From: a virus
Taxonomy: Duplodnaviria > Heunggongvirae > Uroviricota > Caudoviricetes
Strand: one strand, 5' to 3'
IMG/VR virus record: IMGVR_UViG_2541047941_000006
Length of the DNA stretch: 23,448 bases
Position numbers and translations under genes: made by a program. The notes beneath the pieces are model-generated. The model was not told the origin of the DNA, searched no databases, and saw only the letters and a program-made list of their open reading frames with translations. Positions 4,719 through 16,489 of the stretch are shown piece by piece; the first letter of the stretch is position 1, and the number at the start of each line of letters is the position of its first letter.

Positions 4719-5061
4719 GGATATTTATCAGGATTTATCGGTTTCTGAACCCTGGATATGTTTATCTGTCCCGGCCTGTTGAATCAGGCAAGGAATAGTT
4801 AAATACAATAGAGAGGATTGTTTATGGACAATAGCACCATTTCTCTACAGGAGTTGCTCGACTGCATTTCCAAGCTTCGGGATGATGTAAATGCCCTTAC
4901 TGTCGCATTTTAATATCTGGCATTCTCAATTCCCAAGGAACAAATGCAACCAACACTGGCATCGCTCCAGCTTGAATCACTCAACCCCAAATGGTCCCAG
5001 CAACAACAAAATTCTTTCAAGTGGCTGGCGGTATTACTGGAAGAAAAATATGCTGGTGAAA

Positions 5062-5406
5062 TTACCATTTCGGCGGAGTATTCAGAGAACCAGTAATTCT
5101 TCCCGGTAGCTTTCCTTTGTAGGTTATCCACACATTCTGCGCCTCTAAAATTATGGGGCGCTTTTCCGGCGACAGCTCATCCCCTTCACATAACCCGGCA
5201 GCAACATCCAGGAAGACCTGTCTGATGCTCCTTCTGGCTGCTGCCTCATAAAACTCCAGCGCGGCACCTTCAACACGGTCCAGCGAGATGTCCAGGTCAA
5301 AAATTTCACCGTCAAAGCGTTTTTTGTCCCGTAACGCTAAAGTTACCGTAACTTTATTCTCAAAATTGCGGATCCCTTTCACAATCAGTTCATAGTTTTG
5401 AGTCAT
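5062..5406 (-). CDS. YdfR-like protein of unknown function in the lysis cassette
   Basis: 114-aa ORF starting 5 nt after the holin stop with RBS GGGAGAG; same holin-ydfR-lysozyme-Rz order as the Qin prophage lysis cassette (recalled). Confidence 0.65.
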   Translation of the reverse strand: MTQNYELIVKGIRNFENKVTVTLALRDKKRFDGEIFDLDISLDRVEGAALEFYEAAARRSIRQVFLDVAAGLCEGDELSPEKRPIILEAQNVWITYKGKLPGRITGSLNTPPKW

Positions 5407-5410
5407 TGAA

Positions 5411-5626
5411 TTACTCTCCCCGTGCAGCCTTACGCTTGTCTTCTTTAATCTTGAAATAAAGGTTTGTCAGGTACGTCAGCAGGCCAAATACCAGGCTACC
5501 CAGCACTCCAATTGCCGCCCACTGTGAGGGCGTGACTTTATCTAGCAGCTGTAAAAACCAGTACCCGGCACTACCTGCTGAGGTGCCATAGGCGACACCC
5601 GTTGTTAACTTATCCATGGATTTCAT
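5411..5626 (-). CDS. S: Class II holin / pinholin (S21-like) with dual-start motif
   Basis: 71-aa [31 protein letters not shown]...[35 protein letters not shown]; two TMDs; Met1-Lys-Ser-Met4 dual start typical of pinholin/antiholin pairs. Confidence 0.9.
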
Positions 5627-5734
5627 AACCCCACCTCGCAGACAAAGCGGGTGTAAATTGAGGGAATACTACGAAACGTAACAGACTCGGAGTCAGTGAA
5701 TAACTCAGGTATTGGGTTATCAGCTAATATCGAG

Positions 5735-5770
5735 ACTCAAAAAATGGAAAAACCCGCTCGACGGCGGGTT
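5735..5770 (-). terminator. Intrinsic terminator upstream of the holin (candidate tR' of the late operon)
   Basis: On the minus strand AAACCCGCC-GUCGA-GCGGGUUU hairpin followed by UUUUUCCAUUUUUU, about 110 nt upstream of the holin start. Confidence 0.5.
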
Positions 5771-6199
5771 TAAGCTGTGTGACGAAGTAACCACTCTTAA
5801 CAGCATAACCAATTTTTTACGTACGTAAACCACTAAATGATATTTGCGAGAATGCTACCGAGTGTTCAAAACACCACCACAAATACATAAGAAAACCTCA
5901 ACAAATAACCAACAAATAATTTCCAGTGTTATTTTTAGCCGATTTAAATTGAACCTTCAAATTATAGAGCACTTATAAATAACAGCCGTTAATATAAATT
6001 GGCTAATAGATTTATTTTTATTCAGCCAAGAGCTATGAATAGGATTCGATAGAAAAAAGTTCAGATAAAAATAGAGATCTACTTCACAAATCAAACGAGA
6101 AACCAAAACTTACATCTTGAAATAATCACATTGATTAGATGAATATTTATCGCGCAGTGACATCATTTTTTAATAATAGTTCAAAAAAAAGGGCTCACG

Positions 6200-12913: not shown

Positions 12914-13144
12914 TTAAGCTGCGTTCTTTTCGGTGTGTGGAAACAACTTCGGAAGGTCCGGGCGAATCTGGTATGCCTTCACAACTCCACCAGTAGCCGT
13001 AACAATGCTGCCGACATGTTCAGGGGATACCTTTGCTTTGTTGTGAAGCCACTTATAGACGGCCTGCTGTGAAACTTCGCAGGCATCGCCCAGTTTCTTT
13101 TGTGAACCAACGATATTGATCGCTGTTTTGATTGCTGGGTTCAT
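12914..13144 (-). CDS. cro: Cro-like repressor (YdaS/Cro family HTH)
   Basis: 76-aa ORF divergent from cI with RBS GGAGG; HTH segment QKKLGDACEVSQQAVYKWL. Confidence 0.8.
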   Translation of the reverse strand: MNPAIKTAINIVGSQKKLGDACEVSQQAVYKWLHNKAKVSPEHVGSIVTATGGVVKAYQIRPDLPKLFPHTEKNAA

Positions 13145-13158
13145 AACAACCTCCGTGG

Positions 13159-13207
13159 TTAATCTGAATCAAGATTAAAACTATGGTTGTTTTTAGTCAA
13201 CAACCAT
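13159..13207. promoter_or_regulatory. OR operator region with two palindromes, overlapping the PR promoter for cro
   Basis: Perfect palindromes ATGGTTGTT-N7-AACAACCAT (13183-13207) and TTAATCT-N6-AGATTAA (13159-13178); minus-strand -35 TTGACT (13195-13200) and -10 TAATCT (13172-13177) ahead of cro. Confidence 0.5.
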
Positions 13208-13213
13208 TTTCGT

Positions 13214-13242
13214 TTGATGTAATAAAACCCTGGTTGTACATT
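13214..13242 (+). promoter_or_regulatory. Putative PRM promoter giving a leaderless cI transcript
   Basis: -35 TTGATG (13214-13219), 17-bp spacer, -10 TACATT (13237-13242), then 6 nt to the cI ATG at 13249; no SD sequence. Confidence 0.4.
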
Positions 13243-13248
13243 TGGTCT

Positions 13249-13938
13249 ATGAAAACAACACTCTCAGAAAGACTTAAAGAAGCCAGATTAGCGCGAGGCC
13301 TTACACAAAAGGCGCTTGGGGATTTGGTCGGGGTTAGCCAAGCTGCTATTCAGAAAATCGAAACAGGGAAAGCTAACCAAACAACTAAAATCGTGGAGAT
13401 CGCGAACGCTTTGGGTGTGCGCGCAGAATGGTTATCTTCTGGCGTTGGAAATATGTCAGACAGTACAGTGCAACCAATACAATCAACTGTCAGCCATTCC
13501 AAATACTTTAAGATTGACGTTCTTGATATAGAAGTGAGTGCCGGGCCGGGAGTCATCAACCGTGAGTTTGTAGAAGTTCTACGCTCGGTTGAGTACTCGT
13601 TTGACGATGCTCGTCACATGTTCGATGGTAGGAAGGCAGAAAATATCCGCATCATTAACGTGCGTGGTGACAGCATGTCAGGAACGATCGAACCAGGTGA
13701 TCTGCTGTTCGTTGATATCACGGTTAAATCTTTCGACGGTGATGGTATCTATGCGTTTCTGTATGACGACACAGCCCATGTAAAGCGCCTGCAAATGATG
13801 AAGGATAAGCTGCTGGTTATCTCTGATAACAAAAGCTACTCACCGTGGGACCCGATCGAGAAAGATGAGATGAACCGGGTATTTATCTTCGGGAAAGTTA
13901 TTGGGAGCATGCCGCAGACGTATAGGAAGCATGGATAG
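13249..13938 (+). CDS. cI: CI-type prophage repressor (HTH plus S24 LexA-like autopeptidase domain)
   Basis: 229 aa from ATG 13249 (track ORF starts upstream at 13183); N-terminal HTH (LTQKALGDLVGVSQAAIQKIETGK); C-terminal peptidase motifs (VRGDSMSGTIEPGDLLFVD ... HVKRLQ). Confidence 0.85.
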   Translation: MKTTLSERLKEARLARGLTQKALGDLVGVSQAAIQKIETGKANQTTKIVEIANALGVRAEWLSSGVGNMSDSTVQPIQSTVSHSKYFKIDVLDIEVSAGPGVINREFVEVLRSVEYSFDDARHMFDGRKAENIRIINVRGDSMSGTIEPGDLLFVDITVKSFDGDGIYAFLYDDTAHVKRLQMMKDKLLVISDNKSYSPWDPIEKDEMNRVFIFGKVIGSMPQTYRKHG

Positions 13939-14006
13939 TACCAATTAAAAATTATCAACCGGGCATTGTGCTCATTCAGTAAAACAACTTAATTATTCAT
14001 TTTAGA

Positions 14007-15080
14007 ATGGAGAACTTAATGGATACTTTAAAATATGAGAAATTCTCTGATTTTGATCACAATGACCCATTTTTTGACTCTTTAAAAAAAGATTATAAAG
14101 AGTTTCCTCTTTGGTTAGAAAAAAAAGCCAGAGAAGGAGAATCAGCTTATGTGCTCTATGATGACAAGCATAAAATCGAAGGTTTTATGTATCTAAAAGA
14201 AAATGATGATGCAAATGACATTAATCCAGCGCTCCCACCAGGACGTCATCTAAAGATAGGAACATTCAAATTTGAATCTAAAGGCACCCTTCGCGGACAA
14301 CGATTTCTAAAAAAAGCGTTTGACCATGCATTTTCATCAAAATCTGATGATATTTATGTTACTGTTTTCGACAAACACGTCCATCTAATAAAACTTTTCC
14401 AAACGTACGGATTTTACATTCATGGTGAAAAAGAAACACATAACGGGAAAGAGTTTGTATATGCGAGGTCTTTGCATGAGCCTTATGGTGATATTTTATT
14501 AGATTACCCTCGAATAATGACATCAAGGGCCAACAAATATTTACTGGCGATTTATCCCGAATATCACACTAGACTATTCCCTGATTCAAAACTTGTAAAT
14601 GAATCACCAGATATTGTCAAAGATATATCCCATGCTAACAGCATTCATAAAATTTACATATGTGGAATGCGTTCTGTGATGGGAATGAAAAGAGGAGATA
14701 TCATTGTCATCTATAGAACCGGAGACAAAAAAGGGCCAGCTCGCTATCGTTCTGTAGCCAGTACATTATGTGTAGTTGAGAGCGTAAAAAATATTTCTGA
14801 ATTTTTAAGCGAAGATAGTTTTGTAGACTATTGTATTCGTTTTAGCGTATTTTCTGAAGATGAACTCAGAAAAATCTATAAAGAACGTCGATACCCTTTC
14901 ATTATAAGATTCACATACAATCTGTCTTTGCCAAAGAGACCCAATCGTGCTATTTTAATAGATCATGTGGGGCTAAATGGTTCGCGTGCATTCCGATGGA
15001 GTCACTTTAAACTCACAAATGAGCAGTTCTTAAAGATCATCGAGTTAGGCAAGATAAATGAAAGTTTTATTATCCATTAA
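14007..15080 (+). CDS. Hypothetical 357-aa protein: N-terminal GNAT-like acyltransferase region fused to a C-terminal PUA-like region (candidate exclusion/defence effector)
   Basis: Long AT-rich ORF directly downstream of cI (rexA position); GNAT-like motifs by eye (GTLRGQRFLKKAFDHAF; LFQTYGFYIHGE); C-terminal segment with PUA/ASCH-like strands (LLAIYPEYHTRLF; KRGDIIVIYRTGD). More likely start is ATG 14019 (GGAG 6 nt upstream). Domain calls are unverified. Confidence 0.7.
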   Translation: MENLMDTLKYEKFSDFDHNDPFFDSLKKDYKEFPLWLEKKAREGESAYVLYDDKHKIEGFMYLKENDDANDINPALPPGRHLKIGTFKFESKGTLRGQRFLKKAFDHAFSSKSDDIYVTVFDKHVHLIKLFQTYGFYIHGEKETHNGKEFVYARSLHEPYGDILLDYPRIMTSRANKYLLAIYPEYHTRLFPDSKLVNESPDIVKDISHANSIHKIYICGMRSVMGMKRGDIIVIYRTGDKKGPARYRSVASTLCVVESVKNISEFLSEDSFVDYCIRFSVFSEDELRKIYKERRYPFIIRFTYNLSLPKRPNRAILIDHVGLNGSRAFRWSHFKLTNEQFLKIIELGKINESFIIH

Positions 15081-15435
15081 GCCTGAGTTTGCAGAAAAAA
15101 TATTGAACGGAACAAAGCGGTTCGAGTTTCGTAAAGGTATATTCAAAAATCCGCAAATTAGCACCGTTGTTATTTATGCCACGATGCCATTAGGTAAAGT
15201 TGTTGGTCAATTCCGTATTGAATCAATACTAAGTGACGAACCGGAATCTCTTTGGAAAAAGACGGAAAAACACGCAGGTATTTCTAAGCAATTTTATGAC
15301 TCATATTATTCAGGTAGAGAAAAGGCCTACGCAATAAAAATTGGTGAAGTGGAAAGATATAAAGAACCAATTCCTATCTCTGCTCTAGGGAGTAATATTA
15401 AGCCACCACAATCATATCTTTACCTACCTGCGTAA
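15058..15435 (+). CDS. ASCH-domain (PUA-like) protein, 125 aa, translationally coupled to the upstream gene
   Basis: N-terminus MKVLLSIKPEFAEKILNGTKRFEFRK matches the ASCH beta1/GxKxxExR signature; start overlaps the upstream gene by 23 nt; AT-rich. Confidence 0.7.
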   Translation: MKVLLSIKPEFAEKILNGTKRFEFRKGIFKNPQISTVVIYATMPLGKVVGQFRIESILSDEPESLWKKTEKHAGISKQFYDSYYSGREKAYAIKIGEVERYKEPIPISALGSNIKPPQSYLYLPA

Positions 15436-15439
15436 GAAT

Positions 15440-15466
15440 CCCGGCCACCGTGCCGGGTTTTCTTTT
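15440..15466 (+). terminator. Intrinsic terminator closing the cI-cassette operon
   Basis: CCCGGC-caccgt-GCCGGG hairpin followed by TTTTCTTTTG, 5 nt after the ASCH gene stop. Confidence 0.6.
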
Positions 15467-15590
15467 GTCCCCTCATCACACAAACCGTTCAAATAACCAC
15501 CACGACATCCCTTCAGTTATCGCTATGCGATGCAAGTCACAAAATAAATCCATCCTAAATACAACCAGTTATATCTAAAACAACCAGTAA

Positions 15591-15633
15591 AACAACTTTT
15601 GTTGTTGACGATAAAACAACTATAGTTTTAAAT
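15591..15633 (+). promoter_or_regulatory. OL operator / PL promoter region
   Basis: Palindrome AACAAC-TTTT-GTTGTT (15591-15606) shares the AACAAC half-site with OR; -35 TTGACG (15605-15610), 17-bp spacer, -10 TTAAAT (15628-15633); more AACAAC repeats at 15561-15620. Confidence 0.45.
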
Positions 15634-15739
15634 AAATTCATCGCAACAACACAACGATACGGCAACCACCTGATTCACCGTTGCGATGACCGCTTAGATC
15701 CGCAGCTTGAATTTCAGCAGGCTCCGGGGAGTGCGAGGG

Positions 15740-16117
15740 GTGAAGCGGACGCGTGAACGTCGGTGTGACCAGCTGAAATCAACTCAACACTTCATACCTC
15801 AGTCGCTTCAACGAGGCGGCTTAGTTATGACAACCGGCGGCCATCCACCGCCTGAATACGCGCAGAAGTCTATATATGTTCAGCAGCCCAGCTTACGGGC
15901 AGGAGTTTTTATGGTTCATCAACATTACGGAACGCAGACCGTTAATCGCGGTGCGGTCATGCCAGGAATGCTGGTCAAACACAAAGATGGTACCTGGACT
16001 GCATCAGCTAATTTACGCGGACGACTTTATCTGCATCGCGGCATTGAGCGCACTTATACCCGTGACTTGCTCGTGGAAGTTTTTCTCGACGGACGCGGCA
16101 ACGGTCTGAATCACTAA
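15740..16117 (+). CDS. Possible N-like antiterminator (arginine-rich motif), start uncertain
   Basis: ORF in the first position of the PL operon; in-frame GTG at 15740 preceded by GGGGAG gives an N-terminus MKRTRERRCDQLKS resembling the lambda N arginine-rich motif; rest is basic and low-complexity. The first in-frame ATG with a strong RBS is at 15908, which would give a 69-aa protein instead. Confidence 0.35.
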   Translation: MKRTRERRCDQLKSTQHFIPQSLQRGGLVMTTGGHPPPEYAQKSIYVQQPSLRAGVFMVHQHYGTQTVNRGAVMPGMLVKHKDGTWTASANLRGRLYLHRGIERTYTRDLLVEVFLDGRGNGLNH

Positions 16118-16192
16118 TCCCCTTTCCTGTTTTCCGAATCAGCCTGGCATTCCGCGGGCGATTTTTTCACAGCCATTTTCAGGAGTTCAGCC

Positions 16193-16489
16193 ATGAACGC
16201 TTATTACATTCAGGATCGTCTTGAGGCTCAGAGCTGGGCGCGTCACTACCAGCAGATCGCCCGTGAAGAGAAAGAGGCAGAACTGGCAGACGACATGGAA
16301 AAAGGCCTGCCCCAGCACCTGTTTGAATCGCTATGCATCGATCATTTGCAACGCCACGGGGCCAGCAAAAAAGCCATTACCCGTGCGTTTGATGACGATG
16401 TTGAGTTTCAGGAGCGCATGGCAGAACACATCCGGTACATGGTTGAAACCATTGCTCACCACCAGGTTGATATTGATTCAGAGGTATAA
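16193..16489 (+). CDS. gam: Gam (RecBCD inhibitor), GamS-length
   Basis: 98 aa [60 protein letters not shown]..., near-identical to recalled lambda Gam; RBS AGGAG. Confidence 0.9.

Follow-up and report, generated by a model that had tools for sequence, protein, structure and literature searches.

A two-gene cassette at positions 14007-15466 of the IMG/VR virus record IMGVR_UViG_2541047941_000006 (Caudoviricetes; the whole stretch of 23,448 nucleotides (nt) is referred to below as the window) is the GevT–GevA module, hereafter GevTA, in which a GNAT-EVE fusion protein is paired with an ASCH protein and which appears in PADLOC as the candidate system PDC-M11. Every defining feature of this module that we tested was found in the cassette, which is already known both as an entity and as a prediction. 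As to its function, GevTA is predicted to be a self-contained, horizontally mobile two-gene cassette of the toxin–antitoxin (TA) type, which a lambdoid prophage carries as cargo in its rexAB slot, and we think it reasonably probable that this TA-type module is expressed in the lysogen and acts in phage exclusion.

Identity with a described module

Over positions 13900-15600, the window shares 99.1% nt identity with phage PhiR47_2 (PV340567.1), and the two GevT proteins are 100% identical in amino acid (aa) sequence. The PhiR47_2 record annotates a “GevT toxin” and a “GevA antitoxin” in the order cI, GevT, GevA and kil/gam/bet/exo, which is the order found here, and the two cassettes are effectively the same element, with the annotated start of GevT as the only difference (357 aa, versus 353 aa in RefSeq). 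The name “Gev” is presumably short for GNAT-EVE. PhiR47_2, from the panel of ECOR-derived temperate phages of Brenes & Laub (2025), is one of eight sequenced lambdoid phages of E. coli that have the cassette at 99% identity.

Both proteins also match the PADLOC models over their full length (GevT to PDC-M11A at 2.1e-133 and GevA to PDC-M11B at 6.8e-52), and GevT matches phrog_6345 at 1e-186. Some PDC-M11A models are longer (444-501 positions), and to these GevT aligns only from about position 90-165 onward; the extra N-terminal region of these longer models may be the PIN domain of Bell et al. (2020), in which case it is missing here. The PDC systems are untested defence candidates, derived by “guilt-by-embedding” (Payne et al. 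2024, preprint) from genes located inside BREX, DISARM or type I restriction–modification (RM) loci, whereas the copy in the window resides in a prophage.

The architecture itself has a longer history. Bell, Wolf & Koonin (2020; PMC7641849) recognized a separate cluster of EVE domains, which are fused C-terminally to GNAT-like acetyltransferases, noted that the fusion is almost always found beside an ASCH gene and is common in beta- and gammaproteobacterial prophages, and predicted that GNAT-EVE and ASCH together form a TA system; they credit the earlier description, including the prophage TA prediction, to Iyer et al. (2013). The cassette shares with their (PIN)-GNAT-EVE plus ASCH arrangement the C-terminal EVE-like fusion, the adjoining ASCH gene and the location in a gammaproteobacterial prophage. 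A sequence-only reading of the window had put the cassette forward as an undescribed exclusion or defence module, and this claim has to be withdrawn: the architecture was predicted in 2020 (in 2013, following Bell et al.), it is a PADLOC candidate, and it is named in the near-identical (99%) PhiR47_2, which leaves little discovery value in the finding.

Layout of the locus

In the window, a lambdoid phage or prophage, the operon that is leftward in lambda reads on the + strand. The features that matter here are listed below by position; PhiR34_1 is a sibling phage from which the cassette is absent, and OL/PL denotes the leftward operator and promoter.

12914..13144: divergent YdaS/Cro-type regulator; the next gene has a YdaT domain
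13183..13938, + strand: cI-type repressor (Pfam HTH_3 6.5e-13, Peptidase_S24 1.5e-18), annotated cI in PhiR47_2 and PhiR34_1
13939..14018, + strand: cI–gevT spacer, with a Shine–Dalgarno sequence (GGAG, 14009-14012) and a single exact operator-like 9-mer (TAAAACAAC, 13980-13988)
14019..15080, + strand: gevT (protein A), 353 aa, or 357 aa if read from the ATG at 14007 (open reading frame (ORF) 14007..15080)
14025..14486, + strand: GNAT-fold domain of GevT, residues ~7-160 in the 357-aa numbering
14499..15080, + strand: PUA-like (EVE/ASCH-type) domain of GevT, residues 165-357
15058..15435, + strand: gevA (protein B), coding for a stand-alone ASCH protein of 125 aa with a GKER-type octapeptide
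15058..15080, + strand: gevT/gevA overlap, 23 nt
15440..15466, + strand: predicted intrinsic terminator closing the cI–gevT–gevA unit, CCCGGC-CACCGT-GCCGGG followed by TTTTCTTTTG
15576..15640, + strand: putative OL/PL region, with three copies of TAAAACAAC, an AACAAC/GTTGTT inverted pair and a TTGACG -35-like hexamer

The sequence-only reading had described two overlapping co-directional genes that occupy the rexAB slot and are more AT-rich than their surroundings, and on all three counts it was right. ORFs 14007..15080 and 15058..15435 overlap by 23 nt; they follow a cI-type repressor and precede the terminator and then the OL/PL-like repeats; and GC content is 0.33-0.37 over 14000-15400 versus 0.44-0.55 in both flanks. 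The G+C-rich hairpin of the terminator, with its T-run, begins 5 nt past the gevA stop and is kept in PhiR34_1. Three exact operator-like TAAAACAAC repeats lie at 15576-15620, and together with the AACAAC/GTTGTT pair the cluster extends to 15627. From its location, and from its likeness to motifs that sit between cro and cI (OR), we infer that the region 15576-15640 is OL/PL; gam, bet and exo lie downstream of it.

No terminator is predicted in the spacer between cI and gevT, and co-transcription of gevT and gevA with cI is therefore plausible. Promoter-like matches within the cassette are not enriched (7, versus 8.3 expected from shuffled sequence), and no Rfam family was matched in 13800-16300. 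Translation of gevT probably starts at the second ATG, at 14019, rather than at 14007, since the GGAG lies 6 nt 5' of this ATG and RefSeq and most homologues begin protein A at the matching position. In related phages, cI is annotated from an internal ATG that corresponds to about 13249.

Two exact copies of a 14-nt sequence, CAGTAAAACAACTT, which includes the operator half-site AACAAC, form a direct repeat: one is at 13977-13990, in the spacer that separates cI from gevT, and the other at 15585-15598, in the OL operator cluster. The copy upstream of gevT could be a weak repressor site, or a chance occurrence. We also considered the repeat as an insertion scar and rejected this, because the deletion junction in PhiR34_1 lies elsewhere, at ~13983/15364.

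Among the other genes of the immunity region, those of the cro and cII slots are of the YdaS/YdaT type. No N-like antiterminator gene was detectable between the putative PL and gam (15460-16190); an ORF at 15707-16117 has no Pfam match, and a Kil-like protein is annotated there in related records. At a homologous locus in Pantoea (L013), an N_peptide gene comes directly after the GevT/GevA pair.

Domain architecture of GevT and GevA

GevT is a GNAT-fold domain fused to a C-terminal PUA-like domain of the EVE/ASCH type. The full-length protein has no match in Pfam, and when it is split, its halves give GNAT and EVE matches that are both sub-threshold. A profile of protein A searched against PDB sequences reaches the GNAT protein PaiA at an E-value of 2.3e-5, and an AlphaFold2 model built from a 36-sequence alignment has a pLDDT of 87.4 and a pTM of 0.85. 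The fusion had been proposed by the sequence-only reading for a protein of 357 aa: the two folds stand, while the length is probably 353 aa. The PUA-like fold class binds nucleic acids and modified bases. The first strand of the C-terminal domain of GevT (KYLLAIYPE) aligns with the N-terminus of GevA (KVLLSIKPE); a close paralogy between this domain and GevA was considered and rejected, because the hhalign match is limited to that first strand (E-value 7e-4, probability 27%).

GevA is, by its sequence, a stand-alone ASCH protein whose GKER octapeptide retains its Lys/Glu dyad. The ASCH signature that had been noticed in protein B is confirmed by the Pfam ASCH model (2.5e-8, above the gathering score) and by a full-length phmmer match (8.6e-16) to ZmASCH of Zymomonas (PDB 5GUQ), and models of RHH and HTH domains gave no match. 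Across 28 homologues, residues G18, K20, E23, R25, Y40 and S119 of GevA are invariant; Y40 and S119 correspond to Y47 and S128 of ZmASCH, and the third ZmASCH residue, K53, aligns to G46. ZmASCH has been reported as a Mg-dependent ribonuclease acting on single-stranded RNA (ssRNA) in vitro, and a 2026 preprint describes 19 ASCH proteins, ZmASCH included, that strip N4-acetylcytidine (ac4C) from tRNA in vitro by way of the GKER Lys/Glu dyad.

ZmASCH itself matches the PDC-M11B models (3e-29). Its gene in Zymomonas mobilis (locus L094, 3825-5447) is a “solo” copy located between mliC and argJ, after an unrelated 375-aa protein. That ZmASCH could be a GevA orthologue within a GNAT-EVE operon was considered and rejected, as the 375-aa neighbour does not match GevT.

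Distribution and genomic contexts

Of 5426 complete E. coli genomes, 275 (5%) have the exact cassette, always as a single chromosomal copy with an identity of at least 99%. Database relatives number 1631 for protein A and 2443 for protein B, and because of these numbers and the recurring A-then-B overlap, gevT and gevA are real genes rather than chance ORFs. When one genome was scanned for each species, 168 species had a relative, and 80 loci were kept for neighbourhood counts; these cover Gamma-, Beta- and Alphaproteobacteria, Bacteroidota, Bacillota, Verrucomicrobia, Campylobacterota and others. The gene for B directly follows and overlaps that for A in 75 of the 80 loci, the overlap being exactly 23 nt long in 67 of them and 29 nt long in the other 8. 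This overlap is deeply conserved, and because its length is kept across species and phyla, it implies translational coupling of the two genes. The nucleotides of the overlap encode both the conserved C-terminus of GevT (…ESFIIH/N) and the invariant N-terminus of GevA (MKVLLSIK).

The commonest neighbour of the pair is a kinase-like (adenylate-kinase-like) P-loop NTPase of the AAA_17/AAA_18 type, which adjoins it in about 15 of the 80 loci (~19%) and is absent from the window. It is the only recurrent third gene, immediately 5' or 3' of the pair, the remaining neighbours being heterogeneous, and in Vibrio cholerae (L005-L007, 7444-7953) it has a weak match to the PADLOC model “VakA” (5.8e-9). 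Homologues also occur on 30 plasmid records. In Agrobacterium/Rhizobium loci (L092, 2239-4543; L082, 723-1514), a 512-aa relative of GevT, long enough to accommodate an N-terminal PIN extension, lies beside a 263-aa ASCH-containing protein that is probably an HTH-ASCH fusion; at the first of these loci, the 512-aa relative adjoins a second, short copy of GevT that has no neighbouring ASCH gene.

A survey of whether the pair recurs next to phage repressors or in defence islands, which the sequence-only reading had proposed as a check, gave a positive answer for both. In a Salmonella lambdoid prophage, the pair (72% identity) comes directly after a different CI repressor, and in P2/186-like prophages of Klebsiella and Dickeya, it lies between CI and the integrase. 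In SopEΦ, the pair sits between gpA and the portal gene gpQ, where P2-like phages have their old/tin defence hotspot. A V. cholerae island has the pair between a type I-F CRISPR-Cas system, a SNIPE/T5orf172 nuclease and a SIR2 gene, and the AAA_17/18 gene is present there too. In the Klebsiella and Dickeya prophages, a gene for a 355-358-aa protein between CI and the GevT homologue (L008-L011, ~4893-5976) was considered as a part of the system and rejected, being unrelated to GevT and without a PADLOC match; it has no Pfam match either and may be other cargo of the slot.

GevTA-like pairs also occur in Lactobacillus prophage Lj965 and in a Lacticaseibacillus phage. In Lj965 (L096, 2807-4902), the pair follows four phage tRNA genes (Ser, Glu, Tyr and Phe) and precedes the terminase gene, and this adjacency, a single case, may hint at a connection with tRNA. 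A distant homologue of GevT is ORFD of the archaeal virus Methanothermobacter phage psiM100 (8698-9534, “inserted fragment IFa”), with 27% identity, 79% coverage and an E-value of 9e-15.

Two further prophages bear on the maintenance of the cassette. PhiR34_1 has the same cI, cro, cII, O and P genes and the same immunity region as the window. After the cI stop (L093, 3460-3590), its sequence runs …CATTCAGTAAA|GAACTAATTCC…, which joins position 13983 of the window to about 15364. A single deletion of about 1.38 kb took all of gevT and most of gevA, and a gevA 3' remnant of about 72 nt, the terminator and OL remain. On this sequence evidence, the cassette was lost in the PhiR34_1 lineage, not gained in that of the window, and since PhiR34_1 exists without it, with its slot holding the gevA remnant and the terminator, the cassette is dispensable cargo. 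In E. coli O157:H7 EC4115 (L002, 1272-3286), the prophage is decaying, with P split by IS1203, and cI, gevT and gevA are intact.

Proposed mechanism and alternatives

We propose that gevT and gevA would be transcribed together with cI in the lysogen, with translational coupling setting GevA in a fixed ratio to GevT. GevT would inhibit growth by acyl transfer to a nucleic-acid-linked target (a tRNA, an aminoacyl-tRNA, or a modified or unmodified nucleobase) that its PUA-like domain picks out, and GevA would restrain it either by erasing the mark or competing on the same substrate, or by binding GevT. We prefer the eraser or competitor version because related ASCH proteins deacetylate tRNA ac4C in vitro and because the catalytic-type residues of GevA are invariant across phyla; simple inhibition of GevT by GevA at the protein level is possible. 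A superinfecting heterologous phage would tip this balance and unleash GevT, translation would stop and the infection would abort. The lysogen would in this way exclude heterologous phages, a role like that of RexAB by another mechanism.

The most specific form of this proposal, in which GevTA is a reversible nucleic-acid acylation TA with a GNAT writer steered by a PUA-like reader and with the ASCH protein GevA as a dedicated eraser, is a speculative one that we think unlikely to hold. The putative mark could be an ac4C-like acyl group on a nucleobase of tRNA or another RNA, possibly of DNA. The pairing of a writer-like GNAT with an ASCH protein is timely, as ASCH domains are now reported as tRNA ac4C erasers, and it suggests a new kind of toxin/antitoxin chemistry in the form of a concrete hypothesis that can be tested at low cost.

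Genetic data from Dickeya dadantii 3937 bear on this proposal. Transposon sequencing (Tn-seq) in this strain scored the CI gene Dda3937_01765 as essential, the GNAT gene 01764 as growth-defective and the ASCH gene 01763 as essential. The strain-3937 proteins ADM97072 and ADM97071 fall in clusters (at least 90% identity) of homologues that are 57% identical to protein A and 63% identical to protein B. The essentiality of the ASCH gene fits an antitoxin role, and the depletion of insertions in the GNAT gene could reflect insertions that keep the GNAT domain while uncoupling gevA. The toxin/antidote logic of the sequence-only reading is to this extent supported indirectly, by the “essential” call in Dickeya and by the names GevT and GevA in GenBank.

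A number of points weigh against a TA-type role in exclusion. The names themselves rest on GenBank annotation, with no text that defines them found in the literature; PDC-M11 is only a candidate defence system; by the account of Bell et al. (2020; PMC7641849), not one of the domains had been characterized; and our search found no paper with toxicity, neutralization or phage protection for the GevTA family and no published biochemistry for the pair. For GevA, the biochemistry of its relative ZmASCH is mixed, this protein being reported as an ssRNA ribonuclease, as inactive on free ac4C and as having no significant effect on tRNA ac4C in vivo (2026 preprint), and ZmASCH has no GNAT-EVE partner. 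In GevT, the alignment puts a near-invariant Phe, F131, at the position of the general-acid Tyr (PaiA F-Y-KKMGF), motif A (Q/RxxGxG/A) reads K92-G-T-L-R-G97 and is degenerate, and the Pfam GNAT models are below threshold. Acyl transfer by GevT is not assured, because of this atypical Tyr position, the degenerate motif and the sub-threshold matches; judged from the alignment alone, the invariant Y134, three residues past F131, could substitute for the Tyr. Across the 80 species-level loci, most neighbours are unremarkable, and many contexts are neither phage- nor defence-related. Finally, an “essential” call for a 375-bp, AT-rich, acquired gene such as that of Dickeya could mean poor transposon access, for which shielding by nucleoid proteins is one possible cause, and the neighbouring GNAT gene is insertion-poor as well (“GD”).

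The alternative that survives best, which we nevertheless regard as unlikely, is a classical type II addiction module, in which GevA binds GevT and the pair stabilizes the prophage or persists as selfish DNA with no anti-phage role. The tight 23-nt coupling and strict co-occurrence of the genes, their joint loss in PhiR34_1, the intact state of the cassette in the decaying O157:H7 prophage and the many carriers in ordinary chromosomal contexts are all in keeping with such a module. However, the pair is also found in hotspots of anti-phage cargo and in defence islands, and the Lys/Glu dyad and cleft residues of GevA, which a pure binding antitoxin would not need, are invariant across phyla. Moreover, the toxin comes first and GevA has no DNA-binding domain, both of which are atypical of autoregulated type II pairs.

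Could the module instead modify nucleic acids for the benefit of the phage? GevT would then acylate a DNA or RNA base, against restriction or to tune expression, and GevA would read or regulate this, without toxicity or defence. DNA base acetylation was proposed by Iyer et al. (2013), according to Bell et al. (2020; PMC7641849), who themselves suggest that GNAT-EVE might shield phages from host RM. We hold this to be decidedly improbable, as the cassette is in the lysogenic (cI) unit and not among the early lytic genes, the phage manages without it in PhiR34_1, the ASCH homologue is essential by Tn-seq in Dickeya, and the GenBank annotation names a toxin and an antitoxin. Still less credible is that GevA is the effector, as an ASCH ribonuclease acting on phage or host RNA, with GevT as its sensor or regulator: ZmASCH does cut ssRNA in vitro, and the interpretation given for Dickeya speaks for it, but insertions in a toxic gevA should be tolerated and are instead depleted, K53 of ZmASCH is replaced in the alignment by G46, and the annotation in GenBank gives the role of toxin to the GNAT protein.

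For a lysogen-expressed TA module acting in phage exclusion, which is the reading that we prefer, the material for experiments is favourable. PhiR34_1 is a natural cassette-deleted sibling and a ready control, and the pair is very widespread, with a rigid junction and a presence in several prophage defence hotspots, which makes it a good experimental subject.

Comparison with known systems

ZmASCH and the ac4C erasers YqfB, TthASCH, EOLA1 and TRIP4 share the ASCH fold with GevA, and ZmASCH also shares the GKER octapeptide and its Lys/Glu dyad. YqfB carries a GK[T/S]R octapeptide, whereas GevA belongs with ZmASCH to the GKER subgroup (G18-K20-E23-R25). For the GKER-type erasers, the removal of ac4C from tRNA is known from in vitro data on ZmASCH and 18 other proteins, to which GevA is likened by sequence.

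The TA systems of the GNAT/RHH type (TacAT, AtaRT, KacAT and ItaRT) resemble GevTA in having a GNAT-fold toxin, a putative one in the case of GevT, in a two-gene module. Their toxins are single-domain proteins of ~160-175 aa with a catalytic (general-acid) Tyr in the motif F/L-Y-x-x-x-G-F, and the RHH antitoxin is encoded upstream. GevT, in contrast, has 353 aa and two domains, its partner is a downstream ASCH gene, and a Phe stands at the canonical Tyr position. Given the two-domain toxin, the different partner and gene order, and the differing Tyr position, GevTA falls outside the GNAT/RHH families on the sequence features compared. The GNAT/RHH toxins acetylate aminoacyl-tRNA, as cited in Bell et al. 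(2020; PMC7641849), and by analogy aminoacyl-tRNA is a plausible class of target for GevT.

RexA and RexB of lambda occupy the same slot, from cI to the terminator before OL/PL, and are likewise co-directional with cI, from which a lysogen-expressed role in exclusion would be expected for GevTA. No Rex model in PADLOC or Pfam matched the cassette, so that the two share the slot alone. RexAB is a membrane-depolarizing system.

A parallel in proposed logic is DarT/DarG, a phage-defence pair in which the toxin marks nucleic acid covalently and an enzymatic antitoxin takes the mark off again. The likeness is hypothetical, and the folds are unrelated, with ADP-ribosylation of DNA in one case and a putative acylation in the other. 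If it holds, GevTA would be an immune module with a writer and an eraser in the manner of DarTG, which prophages deploy from the rexAB slot and which is conserved across bacterial phyla and some archaeal viruses.

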